A stretch of DNA of 64,000 nucleotides from Cladosporium halotolerans (GCF_011745625.1 NW_027191470.1:372001-436000), one strand, 5' to 3'; shown: positions 14,477 to 51,189, numbered from the stretch's first letter. A program made the numbers and translations. The notes: generated by a model not told the origin, from the letters alone.

Positions 14477-16247
14477 GACGGCTTGCTATGCTCGTGTCGG
14501 TGTTTCGGCGTCAAGGTTGTGGGTGGGATTGGTTTTGAGACGTTTAGTGGTTTCACTTGCACAGCAGGGTAGGTAGTGGCGTATGTGAGTAGTGTGCGCC
14601 GCTGTGCAGGCGACGAAGCCCCGCGCTGACAAAAAGATTACTGCCTCAGGCATGATTCTTGGCACGCCAGCAGCCCTCAAACACCATGCCAACTACCCAC
14701 TCGGCGGTTGGAACCCATAGAGCCACCCAGTTACAAGAATCCACCTGCTTCTTCAACCTTGTCATCACGCCTTCAGCGCAACCCGAGCGTCGGGTGCAAA
14801 GTGGACAGGGCTGCTGCGGTGATGACGACGTGCCGTCTTCGAAGATCTGGCCTCTCTGGCCTTCACGCAAACATCTGTCAGGGCAGCTAGCGCAACGCAC
14901 AGGGCGACGGATTGTGCCGGAAGGATCCCTTGAGTCAAACCAAGCTGTCTCAACGACACAAATGACACGCTCTGGCGCTGGCAACAGTCCCGGGCGGCTG
15001 CACACGATTCATGTTTCAATGCACACCTCGGCTCACGTCAAGCGTCAAGCGAAGAATATGTAAGCTGGGCCGTGGGCCAATCGACTTTTGAAACGGGAGC
15101 AGAAAGTCGCGCCTTCGCCGCCCAGCAGATGGTGGAGATGATGCTGTACCCTACTCTAATCTAGCTGGTTCAGTGCCCCGGGGTTTCCGGTGCGCCGACA
15201 GAGCCCCGACCGCCAGCAAACGCCCGTGCAGTGCAAGATGCCAGCGGACTGGGCGCGGAGAGATGGTAGGGTACTGCCGGCTCAGGCGGCCTTGGTGATC
15301 CCATGATGATCACGTTCTCGATAGCGGGCACTGCCTGCGGCTCCCGCAAACCGCTCGCTTCCAGCGCCGCTCGCCGCGGGCGCTTGTCTCACTACATGAT
15401 CGGGGTCACGAACGCAGCGCCAGCGCGCTCTCACATGCCACGCGCGGGCGAGCCCCAGGGTACCATGTACATCAATCACTAGAGCGCCTCGGTGCAGGAT
15501 CCTGGGCGGCCACGAGTGCGGGCGCGGCGTCTGGAGACGACCGCCACGGCCGAGCACCTGCGCCGGCGCATGCAGGCAACGCGCAGACGCGGTCTGGCGG
15601 GCTCAGGGCGACAGGCCGTGGGCGCCTTGGGCCGCGCCGTGCGGATGGCACAGTGCAGAGGTTGTTTGGCGATGATGTGCCTGGCAGCGAGGTGCCTGGT
15701 GCGCTTCCCGGCGCAGCGAATGGCGGCCCACAGCGCGCATCCTTCAGGCCACAAAGCCAACCCCACACCGAGGCACGCTAGGCAGTTGTTTCGCGAGCAC
15801 GCTCCCACTGGCTCCCCTCTCCTCTGCCCACCGTGCCACTGCCCACCTCGCCCACGCACCAAATCAAAGCATCGCCCTCGCCGCCCGCGCCCGGCAGCCG
15901 GAGCCTGTCCGTGTCTGCCCTGTCGTCCACGCTCTCGCACCGCGCCCGCACCCACCGCTCCGCCGCCGCCTCACGACATCCGCCCGTTTGCACCCCTGCG
16001 CCATCTCAGACTCCTCCACCCACCGCCACTTGGATCTTCGTCCTCTTGCTGCCACTGCCTGCGTACTCCGTAAAAGGGCATGGCGCTTCGGGTTGTGCTT
16101 CCGGTAGCGTCGTCTCTCTAGATCGCTTCATGTGTGACGCTCTGGGCCGCCCTGAACCATTGGCGAGTTTCAGCCTCTCTTACTGCATCCTTCAACAGTA
16201 GCCTTGCCCGCTGCCCAGCCGATTTCGAGCTTCAGGTCCTTTCCAAC

Positions 16248-19100
16248 ATGGCCGAACCTGCTGCTGCCGCGGCGGCCGCCGCTGGCGCTCCTCACACCAA
16301 GCAGTATGTATTCGTCGACGAGTACAACCGGCACAAGCGCCTGAAGGTCATGCGCGCCTGCGATGGCTGCCGAAAGCGAAAGATCCGTTGCGACGGCGCC
16401 TTGCAGAACGGCCCGTGGCCCTGCGGAGCCTGTGTGCGACTTAAATTGAAATGCGTACCGCCAACCCTAGACCCGGACGATGACCCGATTACTCAGACCG
16501 CAGAGGGCTCTGCTGGCAACACTCAATTCACCTTCCAGAACACCACTTTCAATCCAACCACCAGCAAATCCTCACAGCACACGTCCAGCCCTGCACCCAC
16601 CGACTATTCATGGACCGCATCCACCCGCTCGCCACTCAGCTCAGCGCCAACCTCCGCTCCTTCCCATTCAGACGGCAGCACATCGTCTGGGTTTCTCCCC
16701 CCGAAGACAATACCGCCTCAGGCACTTGTCCCAGGAGCCGAGTATGGATATCCACCGGCAACAGCCCCCAGCCAGTACCCGCCATCTCACGACGTGTCAA
16801 GAGGGGTGCGCACGCAAAGCCAGGTCTCGACCAGCTCAGATGGCAATCCTGAAGACGTCGAAGCTGCCGTCAAAAGCCTTACCAATCAAATGGGAGATCT
16901 CCGGGTAGAAATCACCAGTACTTCACCATGGATTACGAGCCACAACAAGAGCACTCAAAAAACGCATGCACGATCAATCGACGAGGGGGACGTCTCGCTC
17001 CCGGCAAGCGTGATTTCTGATACCACTGGCAGAATCCCTTCAGAAATGATGCCTCATGATGAGCGCGTCATGGACTACTTTGGATATTACTTCACTCACG
17101 TCCATCCGTATGTTCCTGTTCTGAACAAGCGACAATTCTATGAGCAATGGCAGACGGCTCCTGACACTGTCCCGTCGTTGCTGCTTGAGGCTATTTTTGC
17201 TTCTGTATCGCGCTATCTCGACCACCCTATTGATTGTAAGAGATGGCTTGCGTTAGCCGCTAGGCACGAGGAGAATTACAAGGATGTACCGGAAGTCAGC
17301 ACCGTCCAAGCCTTGATCATCCTCCTCAAAGCACGCGAATTTGCACCAAAACCTGGTTATTTCTATCGTTCCTGGATGTCTCTGAAATACATTATTACGA
17401 TGGCGATGGATCTGGATATGCACGAACATCACGAAAAGCATGGCGCTGGAACTCCGTGCAATCTATCACGAGCGGACTGTTTTATGTACACGCGGATATG
17501 GCAGGTCCTTTTTGGCCATGAGCTTATCATTGGTGGCCCACAAGGGAGGTCGGATCTCAGCATCGAAGCTGACACTGTCAATACAACCTTCCCATACCCT
17601 GTGCCGGATATTGATACTTTTGATTTTCAGTGCTCGAGGCGGCATACAATGATGGCGCAGGCGGGACATCTCATTAAAATTACGAATACCATGATGCAGG
17701 TCGGAAAACGAAAGAAAAACCCAACTTGGGCGCTTGACCCGGAAATGGAACGCCATGACAAGGATCTGGATGCTTTCTTGCAGAACCTTCCGACAGATCT
17801 GCAGATACATTATCCGGAGGATGGCAGTCCTCCTTGGCTTGGGGGCGACCACTACCTCGCTGATGTTCATGCCTACTTCCACCTGGTTGTAGTGATGCAT
17901 CACCGACCCCAATTGCAGACGAAGCTGGAGATGAAGCAGCCTAACTGGAGACACAATCTTGACATCTGCGTGGATTCGGCGATCAAAATGTGCAAGCTGC
18001 AGGAGGCTTTACTGCGCGATTTCGGGCTACACGGTCTCAATTTCATGCTTCGGGGCATCAATTTCACGGTGTACTGTGTCTTGACTTGCACCATGCTACA
18101 CCTCGTAAGTCATTATTTCTGGGGGTTCTAATCATCATTACATTAACATCATTAGGTTGCGATTACGTGTCCAGATCCTGCGCTCAACTCCCAAGCCCGA
18201 AGATACTTTACCAGGCACATGCGTGTCCTAGAGCAATGCACCTCGTCTACACAACCAGAGATTCAACAACAGATCAACGCCCTTCGAGAAGCCTTCAGCC
18301 GAGATACCAGCAAGCCTTTCGAGCTCAAGCATACCTTGGGCATGCACAGCCCGGTCATGGACCAGCACCTTGCATCAAGTACGGCCATGGCCCATACCAC
18401 GCAACAACCCGTGGTCGGACTGGATGCGCAGAATACGGCTCCCTCAACTTGGGCATTGACTCAGGAAGATTTGTCTCCGAAGAGTACGGATCCCTCGGCC
18501 AGCTACCTGCAATCCTTCGATGCAGCTACGGCGACCGCATCAATGCCAAACACAAGCTCTGTAACTTTCAACACGAACAGCTTTGACATGCCGCCTGCCA
18601 CCGCGTATCCTGGACAGAACTTCGGCCAGGCCACAAGTGCATCATACCAGCCACCTTACGCACTCGAGCGAGTATCCAGTAATGACCAACAAACCCCGCC
18701 AGTATGGGATCCGTCTGGCATTTTCACACAATGGAACACCGCTTTTGGGCCACAAACACCCCAGCAACCATCCCCACCTGCAGCGCAATTCCAGCAACCC
18801 GTAACTTCAACCTCTATGTTACGGCAACCCTTGCCGCAGCAGACCGTCAGCGCAGGCTTCCAGCCTAGCTACTATCAGCCTCCAACAACGGCAGCGCCAG
18901 CTGCTCATCCACCACGGCAGCAGTCAGCAATGGCCGCCAACCCATTTGCGGCCCCGCCTATGCAAACCGTGACGCCCAACATGTGGCAAGATGCCTTCAC
19001 GTCGGCGTACGTGTCGGGTCACGGTCAGAAGCGGTACAGAGACGAATCGATTGATGCGTCTGCGATGTATGATCCTTACGGAACGAAACGAAGGGGTTAG
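16248..19100 (+). CDS. Zn(II)2Cys6 transcription factor with fungal-specific TF middle domain, 2 exons
   Basis: ACDGCRKRKIRCDGALQNGPWPCGACVRLKLKC cluster; YFTHVHPYVPVL middle region. Intron 18105-18155 (GTAAGT..TAG) joins TMLHL to VAITCPDP..YFTRHMRVLEQC. Q/P-rich C-terminus. Confidence 0.9.
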
Positions 19101-19915
19101 GAGGGTTGCGATCAAATTCTGGCGCTGGTATGAAAGTATGCTTCTCGATTTTTTCCTCGGCATTCGATTCGAGAGCTGCATCGCGATCTACGTGTTATGT
19201 ACGGGCACGATGTCACTTCACATTTCGAATTGATGTAGACGACAGGGAAGGGAGACACGGGCACGGGACGTAGCAACTGCCGGCGCAACAAGGTCTATGA
19301 AATGAAACTCCAAAATGTTCGACACATAATAACACAAGCATGCAGAGACGACATTATTGCACGTTAACGTTACACCACTACCTCTTCCCTCCCGTAAGCA
19401 CAACCCAACCGCGCCAATCACACAGAAGCTCCCCCAAGCTTTCCTCGCCCGCCACGCCCGCCCACAGAAGCCTTGCAGATCGCTGCCTCTCCTCACTTAA
19501 CTGTGGAGCTTAAATGCGGGGGTCCCGCACCCGCAGGCGGACTTGCGGTTACTGCGATGGCGGAAACCCGTTGCTGAGTCGGCTCTGCAATGTACTCGAC
19601 TGTGTCGGCGTATGATTTCGCGGGAATGATTGACCGACGGTGTGAGGGGTGGGCGGTTTATGTGGATAGGGCGTGGGCGGGTATATGATGGTAGGTCGGT
19701 CGGTCTGTTCTTTCATGTTTTCTGGGAGGGCACGTTTCTGCTTCTTTTGTACGCTTTTCTTCTGACCGACTCGCTGTGATATATGGAAACCTGACATCTA
19801 CGAAGCCTGTTGGTGCTAATCGTGTATCAGATCGTTTTTGGGCATCAGTTAGCATCATCGACTTCGGCTATTTACCTTCAACATATAGCAACCAAGCAGT
19901 CAACAGTAGGCCACC

Positions 19916-21720
19916 ATGGCCATCTGGAACCGCAAGACGACGCCGAACCCATCGCCGAACGATGTCTCTACCAATCCTTCTCCGTCTGGGAAGGAATCTG
20001 GCGATCCCGAAGTAGCCATCCACGCCGAAACAACATCTCACAGCCTCGATCCGGAGCCAAGATGGAAGGTCTCCAAGGCAGGCGACGGCGACGTCGCGAT
20101 GGCCCTCTTCAATTCACCCGCGGAGCTCCACGAACCCATCTCCCCCGAAGAAGACGCTCGCGTCAAGCGCAAGGTCGACTGGATGATCCTGCCCTACCTC
20201 GGCGTCTGCTACGCCTTCTTCTACATCGACAAGACGACGCTCTCGTACGCGGCCATCTTCGGCATCCGCGAAGACCTCAACCTGCAGGGCGCCGAGTATA
20301 GCTGGCTCAGCTCGATCTTTTACTTTGGTTTCTTGGCGTGGGCCTTCCCAACCAATTTCCTCATGCAGAGGCTGCCCATTGGGCGGTATCTAGGCTTCAA
20401 CATCTTTCTCTGGGGCGCGTTCTTGATGCTTCAGGCTGCGGCGAAGAACTTTGAAGGCCTTGCGGCGCTGAGGGCTTTCGCTGGCGCGGCGGAGGCGTGT
20501 TCGGATCCGAGTTTCATGTTGATCACTAGCATGTGGTACAAGGTGAGGAAGCTTCATCTCATAGCACGTATGAGTAGACATCGCTGACGTTGATCAGCGC
20601 GAGGAGCAACCTCGCGCCATGGGCACTTGGTATCTGGCGAACGGCTTCGGCATCGCCTTGGGCGGCCTGCTGGGCTTCGGTATTGGTAACATCGACGGTG
20701 CTCTTCCGAGTTGGAAGTTTGAATTCCTGATCATCGGCGCGCTGTGCTGCATCTGGGGAACCGTGATGTACATTTTCTTGCCCGACAGCCCCGTCACTGC
20801 CAAGGGCCTGAGTATGCGGGAGAAGAGAGTCGTCGTGGAGAGGCTGAGAGGCAACCAGACGGGCATCGAGAACAAGCACTTGAAGGGATACCAGGTGAAA
20901 GAGGCATTCTGCGATATCAAGCTTTACGTTTTCTTTTTGCTTGGGATTGTCTGCAACATCCCCAACGGCGGTATGGTCTTCCGAATCTCTGCACGGTCAA
21001 CGCATCAACAGCTAATACCTTGAAACCCAGGGATCTCGAATTTCGGCACCATCATCATCAAAGGCTTTGGCTTTTCTACCTTAGTCACCACCCTCATGCA
21101 GATCCCCTACGGCGCCATCATCGCCATCAGCATCCTTATCTGCGTCTTCGCCAATGAGTACGTCGAGAAGAGCGGCCGGCAAGCCCGCTCCTGGTTCATC
21201 CTGCTCTTCCTCGCGCCCAACATCGCCGGCGCCTTCGGCCTCGCCTTCCTCGACCAGAACAACCAAGCCGGCCGCCTCGTATCCTACTACCTGACCGGGC
21301 CCTACAACGCCGCCTTCGTCATGGTCCTCAGCATGTCCACGGCTAACACGGCCGGACACACCAAGAAGGTCGTCACGAACGGTCAGTCCCCTCCCCGCCC
21401 CCTCCCCACCAAACAAAAACTAAGACCCCTTCCCAGCCGTCCTTTTCCTCGGCTACTGCACCGGCAACATCGCGGGCCCCTTCTTCTACCTGTCCTCGCA
21501 GGCGCCGCGCTACGAGCTCGGCATCTGGAGCATGATCGTGTCGCACCTGATCGAGGTCTGTCTGATCCTGTTCCTGCGCTTCCTGCTGGCGCGCGAGAAC
21601 AGGAGGCGCGACAAGATCCAGAGCGCGATGGAGGGCGGGCTCGAGGGGAGGGATCTGGACGCGACGGCGTTTGGCGATTTGACGGATTGGGAGAATTTGA
21701 ACTTTAGGTACATTTACTGA
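19916..21720 (+). CDS. MFS allantoate/dipeptide permease family (Dal5-like) transporter, 4 exons
   Basis: RKVDWMILP..FFYIDKTTLSYAAIFG, SWLSSIFYFGFL, NTAGHTKK and DLTDWENLNFRYIY. Introns 20543-20597, 20971-21030 and 21382-21436 restore one frame. Confidence 0.9.
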
Positions 21721-43224: not shown

Positions 43225-44117
43225 TTAACGAGCCAGGTTAGAAGGAGCAGCAAGAGCCGGGCCCTCAGGAGTGACATAAGCCTTGGTCATACCACCGTCA
43301 ACGACAAAGTCGCTGCCGTTGACAAAGCTGGCCTCATCGCTAGCCAAGAACAAAACGGCCTGCGCTTGCTCAATAGCCTCACCGAAACGGCCAGTAGGGA
43401 AGTGAACCTCACGCCTGTGGCGCTTGGCCTGGTCATCACCGAGCCAGTCCTGGAGCAGCGGGGTGTTGAGAGGCGCAGGGCAGAGAGCGTTGAAGCGGAA
43501 GCCCTCGCGCGCGTGCACGATGGCGAGCTCGCGGGTCATGGCGAGGACGGCGCCCTTGGAGGCGGTGTAGGCGAGCTGGGGAGTGGCGGCACCGACGAGA
43601 GCGACGACGGAGGCGGTGTTGATGATGCTGCCCTTCTTCTTGTTGTGCTTGCGCAGCGAGAGGACGGCGTGCTTGCTGCCGAACCACACACCCTTCACGT
43701 TGATGTTTTGGGTCATGTCCCAGATCTTCTCGGGTGTATCGACGGCGTCTAGTAAGAAGAGTTAGCTTGACGCCCTGTTACTGAATGAACATGGTGGAAC
43801 TCACCGGCGTCGTCAGCGTGCATGATACCGGCGTTGTTGAACATGATGTCAACGCCACCCCACTCGTCGACGCTGTCAACGAGAGCCTTGATGTTGTCTT
43901 CCTTGCTGACATCGCACTTAGCAGTCTTGATCTTGCCGACCATCTCCGGCGCGGCCTCCTTTGCCTTTGCGACAGCCTTCTCAAGCGCGGGCTCAGAGAT
44001 ATCGGCCATGACGACAGAAGCACCCTCGCGGAGGAAGAGGATGGTAGTCTCAAGACCAATGCCACCGGCGGCACCGGTGACGATGGCGTTCTTGCCTTCC
44101 AAGCGCAGTCCAGGCAT
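43225..44117 (-). CDS. Short-chain dehydrogenase/reductase, Rv2857c/SCO1611-like, 2 exons
   Basis: TGAAGGIG, FNNAGI, intron 43749-43804, GSIINTAS, YTASKGAV and DGGMTKAYVTP. Confidence 0.92.
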
Positions 44118-44869
44118 GATTGTTAGATGTCTGTGTGATGGGTTTGATAGTTGATATCAAAAGCGTGCGTTTGATAGAAATCGATAAGCCAAGACTCTCG
44201 CGTCGCAGAGAACTTTGCGGATGCTTCGATGTCAGGGTTCACAGGGTGTTTTGATGAAAAATGTAAGAGACGGGTTGCGGTCGCACAGTCAGAGGGGACG
44301 TCGTTTTACTTCACCAAGCCCCGCGATGATGAAGTGCTCGTGGGGTAGAAATGACACGTAGGGAGGGCACTTATCTAATCGCAATGCCCTTCTACGGCAA
44401 ACCTCCGGGCCGGCGTTTGAACGGCGGCGACTTGATAGCCGCTCGTCGATGAATCACTTGAATTGATTGATTAATGAGATTGTTACCAAATCGCCGCCCG
44501 TAAGTTCATGGGTTCGTGTGGACACGCAATGATCGATAAACCGTCGTGTGACGATACAGGACGTGCGTGCTAGCCTCCCGCGCCAGGATCGCAGAAGCGG
44601 GATGGAACAGGATAGAGCTTCTTGTTTGCGCGTGGCGGGATGCGCCGGCGACGCCAGCGGCGTTAGCCTGGTGATCTGCCACTTCGACATCGCCCTACGT
44701 CCCAGCGCCAGGGCTGGACTACCTGGCAGCCCACCACCAGCTGTCTGCCTCGCCGACCGATAGCCATTCTCTTCCTTCCACTCTGCTTGATCACCTCCGA
44801 AAACACCAATTCCCTCACCACCCTCCTTCTATAAACCCGTTTCCAGCCTCACGTGACAACAACCTCAAT

Positions 44870-46520
44870 ATGGCTATCGGCGACGATCTCACCCAGCTCA
44901 CGCATTCCGACCTCCCCGAGCTCCTCAAAGATGATATCAGCGTCAAAGTTGGCGGGACGGACATTGACGGCCAGGTTCGCGGCAAGCTCATGTCAAAGAA
45001 GAAGTTCCTCTCGATCTCCAAGTCGGGCTTTGGCTTCTGCAGCGTAATCTTTGGATGGGACATGCACGATCAGACCTACTACAAGGAATTGAAGATCAGC
45101 AACAAGGAGAATGGCTACCGTGATATTGTCGCTGAGGTCGACCTCAGCTCGTTCAGGCGTATCCCCTGGGAGAACAACATTCCTTTCTTCATGTGCAGCT
45201 TCCGCGAGCCAGAGGGAACCTCGCTCAGCGCATGCCCGCGCAGCTTGCTCGAGAGGGCAGTCGCTAAAATTGAGAAGTCGGGCTACGGCGCGATGGCAGG
45301 AGGTAAGTGGTAGATCCCATTTGCGACGGCCTGACATGCTTTTGGCCAGATCAACTCCCCACGTGCCACACAGTGTGTCGATTCAACATCACGCTGACTC
45401 GGCTCCCTACTAACCATAGCCGAATACGAGTTCTACCAATTTCGCGCGCCTTCAGCGACCAATGGACCTTCCGGCGAGCGCAACTCTTCCGCTACAGCGA
45501 CTTTCCTCCGCGACAACCCGGTGGACAGTCTGCCCTCGCTCGAGGAGGGAATGTTCGGTTATTCTCTGACCCGCCCAATTCACAACCAAGACTGGTACTA
45601 CGGTGTTTTCGACGCCTGCTCCAAGTTCCGCTGCGACATTGAGGGCTGGCACACCGAGTCCGGACCCGGCGTATACGAGGCCGCGCTGGAGTACGGCGAG
45701 ATCAGACAGATGGCCGACCGCGCGGCCCTCTTCAAGCTCACAGTCAAGAACATCAGCAGCAAATTCGGCATCACGCCGTGCTTCATGGCAAAACCGCGCC
45801 AGGGCCTGCCCGGCAACAGTGGCCACATGCACGTCTCGCTCGTCGACAAGAAGTCCGGCGCCAACCTGTTCGCGCGCGACTCGCCCGACCCCAACCCGCC
45901 GTTCGCCGACGTCGAGCACCTGAGCGACCTCGGCCGCCACTTTCTCGCCGGTATCCTTGAGGGTCTCCCCGATATCATGCCCATCGTGGCCCCCACGGTC
46001 AACAGCTACAAGCGCCTGGTCGAGAACTTCTGGGCGCCCGTCACAGTCTCCTGGGGCCTGGAGCACCGTGCCGCATCAATCCGCCTCATCGCGCCCCCAA
46101 CCTGCCCGCCTAAGGGCACGCGCTTCGAGATTCGCGTACCTGGTGCAGACACCAACGCCTACCTCGTGCTCGCCGCCATCCTGGCGCTCGGCTGGCGGGG
46201 CGTGGAGAAGAAGCTCGCGCTACCTATCGCGCCACTGGCTAGGGGCCAGGACGTTGGCGGCGAAGACGACAAGGGCGAGCGCCTGGCGAAGAACTTGAAG
46301 GATGCTACGGCGCGCTTTGTGAGGAAGGAGAGCATCGCGAGGGAGGTGTTCGGCGACGACTTCGTCGAGCACTTTGCGGGCACGCGTGAGCACGAGATTC
46401 GCCTGTGGGACGAGGCGGTAACTGATTGGTAAGTCTTTGACGCATGGGCGTTTTAATTGAGATCTTGTAGTACTGACACGTTCTTGCAGGGAAGTCAAGA
46501 GGTACATCGAGACGGTGTAA
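44870..46520 (+). CDS. Glutamine-synthetase-like gamma-glutamyl-amine ligase (GlnA4/PuuA-like), 3 exons
   Basis: DIDGQVRGK, AEYEF (across intron 45303-45419), HTESGPGVYE, FMAKP..GNSGHMHVSL, NSYKRLVENFWAP and RFEIRVPGAD. Intron 46429-46489 is followed by WEVKRYIETV*. Confidence 0.9.
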
Positions 46521-48969: not shown

Positions 48970-49866
48970 TTACTGACCGCCGGCCGCCACTTCACCAAAC
49001 CGGAACTGCGCCCAACTCATGCTTCCTTCAGGAAGCGTCCAGAGCTGCTTTCCCTTGTCGTCGCCGGCAGCACCAGCAGCAATGTGAACAGGAAGCAGAT
49101 GCTCAAAGCTAGGATGGGCCCTCCTGGCATCACTCCGCTTCAACAACGCCACCATCGCCTTCTCTCTGCCGTCCGCATCCCCTTGCTCAACCGCTTCCTT
49201 CAGCGCGTCATCAAAGCTGTACGCATACGGCTGCGCCTTGGGCTTCCCCATGCTGCTCCACAAATCGCGTAGGTTATGAACCGCCATGCCAGAGCAGATG
49301 ATCAATACGCCCTCGTCCCGTAAAGATGCCAACGCCCTGCCGAGCGCCACATGCTGCGCCGCGTCGTCCGAATCAAACAGCGACACCTGCACAACCGGCA
49401 CGTTTAGCGGGTTCTTCTCCGGGTCAAACGCGACCAAAAACGGCGCGAAAACACCGTGATCGAGCCCCCTCCGCACGCCCTCGGCTTTGATCCCCGCTCC
49501 CTGCAGACGCCCGAGGATCTTCTCCGCGAGCTCCGGCGAACCCGTGTTGGGGTACTGAACCGAGTAGTAGTGGGCGGGGAAGCCGTAGTAGTCGTAGATG
49601 AGGCCCTGGGAGGTGGCGGTGTTGACTTCAACGGCGTCGCGGTCGGCCTGCCAGTGGGCGGAGAAGACGACGACGGCTTTCGGTTTGACTTGCTGGGTAA
49701 TCTCGCGGCCAATGGTTTGCAGTTTGGCGTAGGCTGGGTGGGAGTAGTCTTCGAAGAGGTTGGGGCCTCCTGGATGGGACCGTGAGTCTGTGGATCTTCA
49801 GGTGTCTTGACTATGGGTGTAGGCCAACATACCGTGTGAGAGGAAGTACACCGGCGTTCTAGTCAT
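48970..49866 (-). CDS. LigB-type extradiol ring-cleavage dioxygenase (DOPA 4,5-dioxygenase-like), 2 exons; optional in-frame extension to ATG 50082
   Basis: MTRTPVYFLSHG, intron 49770-49832, GPN..VVFSAHWQ..IYDYYGFPAHYY..RGLDHGVF..SGMAVHNL..AHPSFEHLLP. Confidence 0.88.
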
Positions 49867-50376
49867 CTTGCCAGAATTCGCAAGAAACGTTTGAGTAGAT
49901 TGTGAACGTGTAGTTGAAGTGAGTAGGCCAAGCTTAAAAGCTATCCGCGAAAGCGGACGGGTGAATATGTTTGAATACAGATTGTCGGTCTCCTGGCCGA
50001 TGTGAGGCGACAAGACGGGGGCTATCAGGGCGAGGGCTGCACCGAGAAATACGAGTGAGAGTACCGAGCGAGTGAAAGACATTAACAAGCAGCGGATTTG
50101 CGAAGACCTACATGTATATCCAGTAGCTAAATCCTATGATTAATCCAAGCAGAGTCCTTATACATGCTAGGGGATGTTTAATTCCGCGAGTGCTTTGTCA
50201 TTGCGGTGTCTGGCAGAGGGCTCACGAAAGCCTTCTGCGGCGTCGATTCCGCTGACCGTCTGGCCACTGTTTCAGCCCCTCCAGACGTCATTCGTTTGGT
50301 GAACGGCCTCGGCCTCACTTTTAGCTCGCGACTTCCATCCGAGACTATCTACACGAGCATTCAACTCGCACACAGG

Positions 50377-51189
50377 ATGTCAAGCAAAGCAGCTCTGGTC
50401 GTACCGGCCCTGAGGAGGCACACCTCGACCGTCATTGTCGCCCACGGCCTCGGAGACAGGTGAAGTGCCCGCGTCCAGTTGAGCAGCAGAATGCTAACTT
50501 CATGGCAGCGGCGCAGGATGGTAAGCATAGCTCGCAATTCTCTCCAACAACGGTAACATTCTGATATCTTTACCTTTAGGGCCTTCCTCGCCGAGCAATG
50601 GCGTTCGCGCAACAAGTTCCCCGAAACCAAGTTCATCTTCCCCAATGCGCCTAGCATTCCCATCACCGTCAACATGGGCATGCGCATGCCCGGCTGGTAC
50701 GACATCGCAGACTTCGGCGAACTGGCGAACCGCTCCGAAGACGAGGCCGGCGTGCTGCGCTCGCAGAAGGTCTTCCACACACTTATCCAGGCCGAGATCG
50801 ACGCCGGGATCCCCACCGAGCGCATCATCCTGGGCGGCTTCAGCCAGGGCGGCGCCATGAGCTTGATGGCCGGCGTCACCTGCCCGACGAAGCTGGGCGG
50901 CATCTTCGGCCTGTCGAGCTACCTGCTGCTGAAAGATAAGGTGAAGGATATGGTGCCTGCCGAGTCACCGAACAAGGATACGCCGATCTTCATGGGTCAC
51001 GGCGATGCGGACCCTATTGTCAGGTACGCCTGGGGCCAGATGACGGCCGAGAAGCTGCGGGAGTGGGGCTGGAGTGTGGATTTCAAGACCTACCCAGGCC
51101 TGCCTCACTCTGCTGCTCCGCAGGAGATTGACGACCTGGAAGCCTACATCAACAAGCGGATACCCGATCTTGGCGACAAGAAGCTCTGA
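50377..51189 (+). CDS. Acyl-protein thioesterase 1 / lysophospholipase-like hydrolase, 3 exons
   Basis: AHGLGDS-GAGW is built across introns 50460-50508 and 50521-50579 with a 12-nt middle exon. Also MRMPGWYDI, GGFSQGG, GHGDADPIV and LPHSA. Confidence 0.92.

Follow-up and report, generated by a model that had tools for sequence, protein, structure and literature searches.

Organization of the Gene Pair

The genome of the mould Cladosporium halotolerans contains two neighboring genes that probably encode the start of a pathway in which a small amino alcohol is gamma-glutamylated. They are found in a stretch of 64,000 nucleotides (GCF_011745625.1 NW_027191470.1:372001-436000), which in its full length is called the window below, and they occupy positions 43225-46520 of it. 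One gene encodes a short-chain dehydrogenase/reductase (SDR) and is located on the minus strand, while the other encodes a glutamine synthetase (GS)-like ligase and is located on the plus strand. The genes are divergent, with 752 bp from start codon to start codon. A preliminary description of this DNA had reported an SDR gene and a GS-like gene diverging from a promoter of about 750 bp, had quoted motifs from both proteins, and had described the pair as intron-containing. All of this holds: both genes lie where they had been placed, the motif NSYKRLVENFWAP is found in the ligase, the motifs GSIINTAS, AYTASKGAVLAMTREL, NTPLLQ, and AYVTP are found in the SDR, and spliced contigs support all three introns.

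The SDR gene has two exons and encodes 278 amino acids, identical at every residue to P0121, a protein recorded for C. halotolerans. Pfam adh_short/adh_short_C2 matches cover both exons. Exon 1 (43805..44117, minus strand) starts with the start codon at 44117, matches adh_short (1e-20), and holds the TGAAGGIG motif of the Rossmann fold and Asp39 at the end of strand beta-2. The intron (43749..43804, minus strand) is 56 nt long and displays the elements GTGAGT...CTAAC...AG; the joint given by the aligner is one base off, owing to a difference between strains at 43806. Exon 2 (43225..43748, minus strand, including the stop codon at 43227-43225) continues the open reading frame, matches adh_short_C2 (8.7e-36), and scores 205 bits on its own against the NCBIfam model NF004713. 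The catalytic Ser-Tyr-Lys residues and the substrate region at the C-terminus are part of this exon.

The ligase gene has three exons, all on the plus strand, and encodes 490 amino acids with a Pfam Gln-synt_C match at 7e-70. Exon 1 (44870..45302) encodes the N-terminal beta-grasp domain and ends in phase 1. It has no Pfam match, and its NCBIfam matches, to the N-termini of GGputSyn and gln_synth_III, are weak. Intron 1 (45303..45419, 117 nt, plus strand) has the form GTAAGT...CTAAC...AG. Exon 2 (45420..46428) encodes the catalytic domain, as seen from the Gln-synt_C match (7.1e-70) and from the mapping of the active site, and is followed by intron 2 (46429..46489, 61 nt, plus strand). Exon 3 (46490..46520) consists of the last 10 codons and the stop codon, and gives a C-terminus in agreement with that of the orthologues.

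The evidence for splicing comes from contigs of the public runs X3, X7, and X9, which belong to three studies. That these runs are RNA is a guess as far as their label goes, but the splicing seen in their contigs is in itself evidence of RNA. In all three runs there are contigs from which the SDR intron and ligase intron 2 have been spliced out. Ligase intron 1 is spliced out in two of the three (joint 45302/45420 in X3 and X7), and in X9 there is a loose end running into exon 2. Some short contigs of X3 and X9 in the interval 45273-45447 keep ligase intron 1, which could reflect unspliced RNA or DNA carry-over. The shared divergent promoter between the genes (44118..44869, 752 bp, unstranded) includes an interval, 44270-44777, with zero contig depth in X7 and X9.

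Linkage and Conservation in Fungi

A scan of metagenome contigs using an alignment of fungal ligases gave 80 loci with ligases 50-94% identical to that of the window; many of these contigs may represent related taxa and are thus not independent events. In 33 contigs the sequence extends 2.5 kb or more upstream of the ligase, and 28 of these carry an SDR gene 0.5-2.3 kb upstream, divergent in 27 cases and tandem in one. The sole tandem case is L160:3503-6630, where the SDR gene is upstream of the ligase on the same strand. When it comes to the outer neighbors on the same contigs, which served as controls, the pyruvate carrier on the ligase side is kept in 4/30 and the neighbor on the SDR side in 1/18. 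The pair is also found as adjacent locus tags in Sarea resinae, Meristemomyces frigidus, Paraphaeosphaeria minitans, and P. sporulosa. The survey of synteny across fungi proposed in the preliminary description thus finds the two genes linked, and the SDR-ligase pair has been conserved as a unit in fungi. A divergent fungal lineage with a ligase 58% identical to that of the window (L144:6943-8448 and L147:6765-8587) has a convergent aldehyde dehydrogenase (ALDH) gene directly beside the ligase, giving a cluster of three genes, SDR-ligase-ALDH.

Across the classes of Pezizomycotina (12 sequences each), the SDR displays 80-84% identity over its full length and the ligase 69-81%. Within the SDR gene (window 43225-44117), exon 2 is 87-97% identical among the fungal homologues listed, which is unusually high for an SDR and is not explained by the function proposed below. 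The ligase family appears to extend to other fungal phyla, to judge from named longer homologues of chytrids, Mucoromycota, and Basidiomycota with 45-52% identity. The longer homologues are gene-model fusions with unrelated neighbors.

The Active Site of the Ligase

The ligase was aligned with E. coli GlnA and with PuuA of the annotated K-12 record. Residue numbers follow the E. coli GS numbering, and the E. coli GlnA row was verified to have the named residues there. All 11 mapped residues that bind metal, ATP, or glutamate are kept: the metal ligands E129, E131, E212, E220, H269, and E357, as well as H271, R321, R339, R344, and R359. At the ammonium site, on the other hand, D50 is replaced by K, S53 by K, Y179 by F, and the flap glutamate E327 by W, the alignment near D50 being less secure than elsewhere. 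Tyr397, which is adenylylated in GS, is a valine. In GlnA4-type ligases position 327 is W or F. The available text of the FluG paper states that a lost flap Glu (Trp in PA5508 and FluG) together with a lost Asp marks gamma-glutamyl ligases as opposed to GS (PMC6478659). Judged by these residues, the ligase carries the active-site signature of a gamma-glutamyl-amine ligase, and the preliminary description was right both in noting intact metal and ATP motifs with Trp in place of the flap Glu and in the meaning that it gave to this substitution.

It is hardly credible that the ligase is a glutamine synthetase of the ordinary kind which stands next to the SDR gene without functional meaning. Sources do name the orthologues "glutamine synthetase", the ESM Atlas search yielded only "glutamine synthetase" clusters (from Ascomycota and Pseudomonadota), and the best NCBIfam match is TIGR00653. 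That match, however, reaches 222 bits against a cut-off of 429, and the ligase passes no NCBIfam model. True GS of type I was rejected on this score and on the four replaced ammonium-site residues, and the adjacency of the pair (28/33, against 4/30 and 1/18 for the other neighbors) contradicts this explanation as well.

The SDR and Its Bacterial Relatives

The sequence motifs of the SDR were read using the rules generally known for cofactor binding and catalysis in this superfamily. TGxxxGxG, NNAG, Asn121, Ser151, Tyr165, and Lys169 are invariant in 12/12 fungal orthologues, and so is Asp39. In SDRs an Asp at the end of beta-2 goes with a preference for NAD; since Asp39 is invariant, the SDR is predicted to be of the NAD type, which suits an oxidative role. 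The best NCBIfam model for P0121 is NF004713 (PRK06057) with 284 bits, the next model scoring 217; the score is below the equivalog cut-off of 404. SDRs of bacterial clusters score 504 bits (L227, from a 9-Mb actinomycete genome), which passes, and 310 bits (L001, not an actinomycete) against the same model. The nearest solved chain is 4wec (224 bits, the next 158).

An alignment of fungal SDRs was used to scan one genome per prokaryote species, and the best 80 of 595 confirmed loci were kept. A GS-like gene was counted as linked when found within 3.5 kb; L017 and L025 were dropped beforehand due to short alignments. Of bacterial SDRs at least 45% identical to the fungal one, 39/40 have a GS-like gene nearby, the exception (L014) having 1 kb of contig upstream, as against 2/54 of those below 45%. 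Pfam analysis of ten GS-linked loci gave the order permease-ligase-SDR-ALDH, or variants that include either an ABC transporter or an amidotransferase of class I. One actinomycete class was sampled, and 81/201 of the sampled genomes have a strong SDR match (one copy in 79, two in 2). All 16 loci fetched from actinomycetes contain ligase-ALDH-SDR, 13 of them with a PuuD-like hydrolase and four with a permease, and their SDRs are 47-51% identical to the fungal SDR.

The same layout has been published for SCO1610-SCO1615 of Streptomyces coelicolor. As far as the excerpts of that paper go, GlnA4 is a gamma-glutamylethanolamide synthetase needed for growth on ethanolamine, SCO1611 is an SDR, SCO1612 an ALDH, and SCO1615 an amidotransferase, the SDR, ALDH, and amidohydrolase steps being proposed (PMC6529630). 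The preliminary description had given the cluster and its pathway in the same form.

A quick maximum-likelihood (ML) tree placed the fungal SDRs (SH-aLRT 100) within a clade of 53 rows (SH-aLRT 99) that includes 40 ligase-linked bacterial SDRs, and it left their position within this clade unresolved. Going by this tree and by NF004713 as best model, the fungal SDR is assigned to the bacterial clade of glnA4-operon SDRs, which is the subfamily that had been named in the preliminary description. For two further SDRs with 45% identity (L022:6557-8762 and L023:4034-6316), the linked GS-like gene belongs to a third clade, grouping with the paralogue L095 outside both amino-alcohol clades of the trees.

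The Ligase Clade and Its Genomic Contexts

The SDR-linked paralogue matches the fungal ligase best in each of the five bacterial genomes compared, with about 30% identity, and the identity to GlnA4-type ligases is 29-31%. An exhaustive search of representatives uncovered many proteins closer to the fungal ligase than these paralogues. Using a fungal orthologue as query, prokaryote relatives with 35-47% identity were found in 1/401 genomes in the phylum of genome G003, in 7/401 in the phylum of G585, in 24/301 in the phylum of G001, and in one Poribacteria genome. The phylum of G002 had a fungal-type ligase in 0/301 genomes at E <= 1e-70, in a sample that overlaps an earlier phylum sample. The "phylum" samples centered on G002 and G003 share their first twenty genomes (G211-G228, G013), and G013 is also present in the actinomycete class sample. 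The titles of L001 and L026, the loci from G002 and G003, name an Acidobacteriota and a Boseongicola species, in conflict with the taxonomic grouping used for sampling.

Among the first nine bacterial ligase loci, with 36-47% identity to the fungal ligase, an iron-type alcohol dehydrogenase (Fe-ADH) is found in 7/9, an ALDH in 7/9, a C26/GATase hydrolase in 4/9, and an APC permease in 4/9. When 25 bacterial loci were fetched around relatives of the ligase clade, a fungal-type SDR was found in none of them, an Fe-ADH was nearby in seven, and a more distant SDR in two. Sixteen loci were fetched from the phylum of G001, and two of them contain ligase-SDR-permease and a divergent amidotransferase, the SDR being 40% identical to the fungal one. 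Bacterial ligases of a wider sister group, at L289:5683-10286 and L290:7217-9343, are directly followed by a gene for an SDR with 40% identity to that of the fungus. In L289, the one of these two that was scanned with Pfam, an APC permease comes next and a divergent amidotransferase is found upstream. These two contexts indicate that ligase clades and dehydrogenase folds have been mixed and matched in bacteria too. In one bacterial phylum, other relatives of the ligase (L279:10972-12645, L282:6285-7985, and L283:9496-11358) are located beside PLD-like genes and a D-Ala-D-Ala carboxypeptidase gene, and not beside an alcohol dehydrogenase gene.

A careful ML tree of 86 ligase rows was made, with supports given as UFBoot/SH-aLRT. 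The fungal clade (100/100) is part of a clade of 17 rows made up of fungal rows and representatives (100/100). A clade of 21 rows adds the Fe-ADH-operon ligases L241 and L252 (98/97), and one of 36 rows includes all nine first bacterial ligases (97/91). The GlnA4-type rows join only at a weak node of 71 rows (52/77), and PuuA is found further out. Forcing the fungal and the GlnA4-type ligases into one clade was rejected by the approximately unbiased (AU) test (delta lnL 365, p-AU 2.8e-5) for a group named after the tree had been seen. Phe179, Pro264, and Trp327 are common to 3/3 fungal and 4/4 bacterial rows of the ligase clade, and the four GlnA4-type rows differ from it at positions 179 and 264. 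As placed by the tree, the fungal ligase belongs to a sister clade with bacterial members in Fe-ADH/ALDH/hydrolase/permease operons; no curated name for this clade was found.

Two claims of the preliminary description fail here. The ligase is not GlnA4-like by descent, since it falls in the sister clade and the AU test rejects a joint one. Nor does the fungus simply keep a bacterial gene pairing, given that fungal-type SDRs are missing from all 25 loci of ligase-clade relatives. The fungal pair is rather a mosaic, because its ligase and its SDR derive from different bacterial operon lineages: the former from a clade partnered mostly with Fe-ADH, the latter from a clade partnered with GlnA4.

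Relation to Described Systems

The pair resembles the Streptomyces glnA4 cluster in that a ligase without an ammonium site is combined with an SDR of the same clade, with NF004713 as its best model and with the same proposed chemistry. It differs in the clade of its ligase (29-31% identity), and in that the fungal genes are intron-bearing, divergent, and monocistronic, and have no ALDH, hydrolase, regulator, or permease linked to them in the window. We take Rv2857c-Rv2860c to be the mycobacterial equivalent of the glnA4 cluster. The review PMC9397018 contains neither a mention of Rv2857c-Rv2860c nor of a fungal occurrence.

In a marine Phaeobacter, an operon encoding a ligase, an ALDH, and a dehydrogenase in this order, with an ethanolamine-binding TRAP protein (Kd 7.9 uM), is induced on phosphatidylethanolamine, and its authors relate it closely to pathways that had been demonstrated in C. 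salexigens and A. tumefaciens (PMC10132767, in the portion available). As far as that portion describes this proteobacterial "Eto"-type operon, with its ligase-ALDH-dehydrogenase genes and a gamma-glutamylglycine amidohydrolase, it resembles the ligase-ALDH-Fe-ADH loci that surround pseudomonadotal relatives of the fungal ligase. In the fungus, however, the partner is an SDR and not an Fe-ADH. The Puu pathway of E. coli (the glutamate-putrescine ligase PuuA, the ALDH PuuC, and the hydrolase PuuD; annotated locus L183) follows the same logic of glutamylating an amine, oxidizing it, and then removing the glutamate, and the flap Glu of PuuA is replaced by Tyr. PuuA is nevertheless outside both amino-alcohol clades, and PuuB is an amine oxidase, not an alcohol dehydrogenase.

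Proteins of a further kind, FluG and the "FluG-like regulators", share with the fungal ligase a fungal domain similar to GS type I with Trp at the flap. They suggest another role for the pair, namely that the ligase forms a gamma-glutamylated signal for development, stress tolerance, or virulence which the SDR tailors, nitrogen catabolism being beside the point. The parts of the two papers at hand report that the GS-like C-terminal region of FluG, with the same Trp-for-Glu replacement, is essential for conidiation in A. nidulans (PMC6478659), and that GS-domain-only "FLR" proteins of 437-534 aa are found in ascomycetes, disruption of flrA in B. bassiana being pleiotropic (PMC9426541). That the pair is conserved like a housekeeping function would also agree with a regulatory role. 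Membership in FluG itself was rejected: the ligase has 490 aa against about 860 aa and is without the N-terminal amidohydrolase domain, and no protein of FluG length was found in the best 150 representatives or in 40 longer homologues. In these same parts of PMC6478659 and PMC9426541 a linked SDR is unmentioned. The bacterial relatives of the ligase, moreover, are found in catabolic operons with permease, ALDH, and hydrolase genes, and a regulatory role therefore seems distinctly improbable.

The Shared Promoter

The 752-bp promoter contains seven HGATAR sites, the type recognized by GATA factors, compared to a mean of 1.03 per 752 bp in the window. One of 2000 shuffles reached seven sites, and the promoter is the most GATA-rich region of the window. 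In 11/11 orthologous intergenic regions the GATA density is above that of the rest of the contig (5.7 vs 1.3 per kb), in a comparison that uses whole contigs including coding DNA and has related taxa among them. The GATA richness of the promoter fits control by nitrogen status, that is nitrogen-catabolite control, and is no proof of it.

These observations bear on a biosynthetic explanation, according to which the ligase makes a stable gamma-glutamyl amide (a theanine-like storage compound, an osmolyte, or a precursor) and the SDR works reductively. GS-like ligases are known to make gamma-glutamyl amides that accumulate in some organisms, hydrolase and ALDH genes are not linked to the pair in the window, and the identical protein record names a halotolerant mould. 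Against this stand Asp39, which by the rule given above suggests NAD and not NADPH, the bacterial contexts, which are catabolic wherever they are informative, and the GATA-rich promoter. We consider the biosynthetic explanation very unlikely.

A Proposed Route for Ethanolamine

Two independent lines converge: relatives of the SDR are found in operons published as ethanolamine-utilization clusters, and the nearest bacterial relatives of the ligase, those of the first nine loci, beside alcohol dehydrogenase, ALDH, hydrolase, and permease genes. Both sets of relatives work in operons with a ligase, an alcohol dehydrogenase, and an ALDH, and for this reason the same chemistry would be the most economical reading of the fungal pair. 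On balance we regard it as probable that the pair carries out the first two reactions of a route that begins by gamma-glutamylating a small amino alcohol, ethanolamine being the most likely one.

For the substrate of the ligase, the direction of the SDR, the co-regulation of the genes, and their physiological role we infer the following scheme. The ligase would use ATP to form gamma-glutamyl phosphate and transfer the glutamyl group to the amine of the amino alcohol rather than to ammonium, giving gamma-glutamylethanolamide. The NAD-type SDR would then oxidize the hydroxyl group of this compound to an aldehyde. Products of unlinked genes would complete the route, an ALDH forming gamma-glutamylglycine and a gamma-glutamyl hydrolase releasing glycine and glutamate. 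Both genes of the pair would be driven from the GATA-rich divergent promoter, with nitrogen status in control. The interpretation offered in the preliminary description thus survives as regards the ligase signature, the SDR clade, and the fungal linkage, and is given up as regards descent from GlnA4 and a retained bacterial pairing. Of the outcomes named there as refuting it, the two that computation can decide, an SDR outside the glnA4-cluster clade and a pair unlinked in other fungi, did not occur.

The same chemistry might act on another hydroxylated amine, such as 1-amino-2-propanol, alaninol, 3-aminopropanol, serinol, or a sphingoid or amino-sugar fragment, in which case the role may be detoxification or salvage and not nitrogen nutrition. 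The ligase clade is distinct from that of GlnA4, the characterized ethanolamine enzyme, and the contexts of the bacterial relatives are mixed; they include a GFO/IDH/MocA oxidoreductase with a HAD hydrolase, and PLD-like genes. Classical SDRs often use secondary alcohols, and the very high conservation would suit an endogenous metabolite. For both families, on the other hand, the best-supported bacterial contexts are ethanolamine-type operons known from publications, which include an amino-acid/ethanolamine-type permease, and no context indicates a particular alternative amine. We therefore consider a different amine unlikely.

Several observations weigh against the ethanolamine route. A tblastn search of the 64-kb window (E <= 1e-4) found no homologue of an ALDH, a C26/GATase hydrolase, an Fe-ADH, or an APC permease; the ALDH and the hydrolase are unlinked to the pair, as had been noted in the preliminary description. 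An ALDH is found beside the pair in only two of the 80 fungal contigs (L144 and L147), no hydrolase was seen there, and the SDR is absent in 5/33 contigs (L120, L130, L169, L176, and L179). By the queries used, 14 of the 16 loci fetched from the phylum of G001 have no adjacent dehydrogenase. A PLD-like gene is located beside the ligase in 3/3 Pfam-scanned loci of that phylum; a lipase that releases the head group would fit a supply of ethanolamine, and PLD-like domains are also found in lipid synthases. Furthermore, the conservation of the SDR (80-84%) and of the ligase (69-81%) is unusually high for a peripheral catabolic pair.

When it comes to the enzymes themselves, the analysis connected no member of the fungal ligase clade with an activity that has been measured, the characterized GlnA4 being only about 30% identical and excluded from a joint clade. 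The nearest solved chains of the ligase, 11zs (162 bits) and 5dm3 (154 bits), barely outscore true GS (142 bits). The Phaeobacter, C. salexigens, and A. tumefaciens ligases are likened to it by operon description only. The preference of many classical SDRs for secondary alcohols counts here as well, as do the make-up of the GATA density comparison and the fact that GATA sites also serve regulators other than AreA. In Streptomyces, going by the excerpts of PMC6529630, the SDR step is proposed only, and PMC9426541, in the part at hand, describes ascomycete GS-domain-only proteins as "FluG-like regulators" with pleiotropic knockouts in Beauveria.

Other Genes in the Window

Beyond the pair, the window consists of ordinary housekeeping DNA encoding Vps8, a U5 snRNP GTPase, a thiolase, a PPR protein, and a pyruvate carrier, together with genes for a Zn2Cys6 factor, an MFS fragment, an amino-acid transporter, a LigB-type dioxygenase, and an alpha/beta hydrolase. 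The amino-acid transporter (Aa_trans, PF01490, 37420-38916) is located 4.3 kb beyond the SDR gene and was dropped as a member of the module, being near the pair in 0/80 metagenome contigs. At 16122-20587, about 25 kb from the pair, an open reading frame for the Zn2Cys6 transcription factor adjoins the MFS transporter fragment. The genes for the LigB-type extradiol dioxygenase (minus strand) and for an Abhydrolase_2 carboxylesterase (plus strand) are found back to back at 48970-51189, and these two genes also come after the ligase in the related contigs L102 and L105.

Significance

The type of pathway proposed here is known in bacteria. What is new is a eukaryotic version that is intron-bearing, divergent, reduced to ligase and dehydrogenase, and, as the trees suggest, a mosaic of two bacterial operon lineages. 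A literature search, with most subscription journals outside its reach, found no report of the route in fungi, and gamma-glutamylethanolamide appeared in six papers, which are all bacterial according to the listings. No description of ethanolamine breakdown in fungi was found in the searchable literature either. Ethanolamine is the head group of a major membrane lipid.

A wider proposal, which we put forward tentatively and consider rather doubtful as a whole, is that in filamentous ascomycetes, and perhaps in fungi at large, a eukaryotic pathway leads from ethanolamine to glycine by gamma-glutamylation, with this mosaic core under a nitrogen-regulated bidirectional promoter, and that the phenotypes ascribed to "FluG-like regulators" are metabolic consequences of its loss. 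If the route exists, the conserved, nitrogen-regulated pair would give fungi a way to glycine that avoids free acetaldehyde, and catabolism by protective glutamylation would extend from bacteria to eukaryotes. It would also provide a biochemical role for a widespread family that is annotated only as "glutamine synthetase" or "FluG-like regulator". The pair is, besides, a case in which each of two different bacterial operon lineages has contributed one gene to a fungal gene pair.

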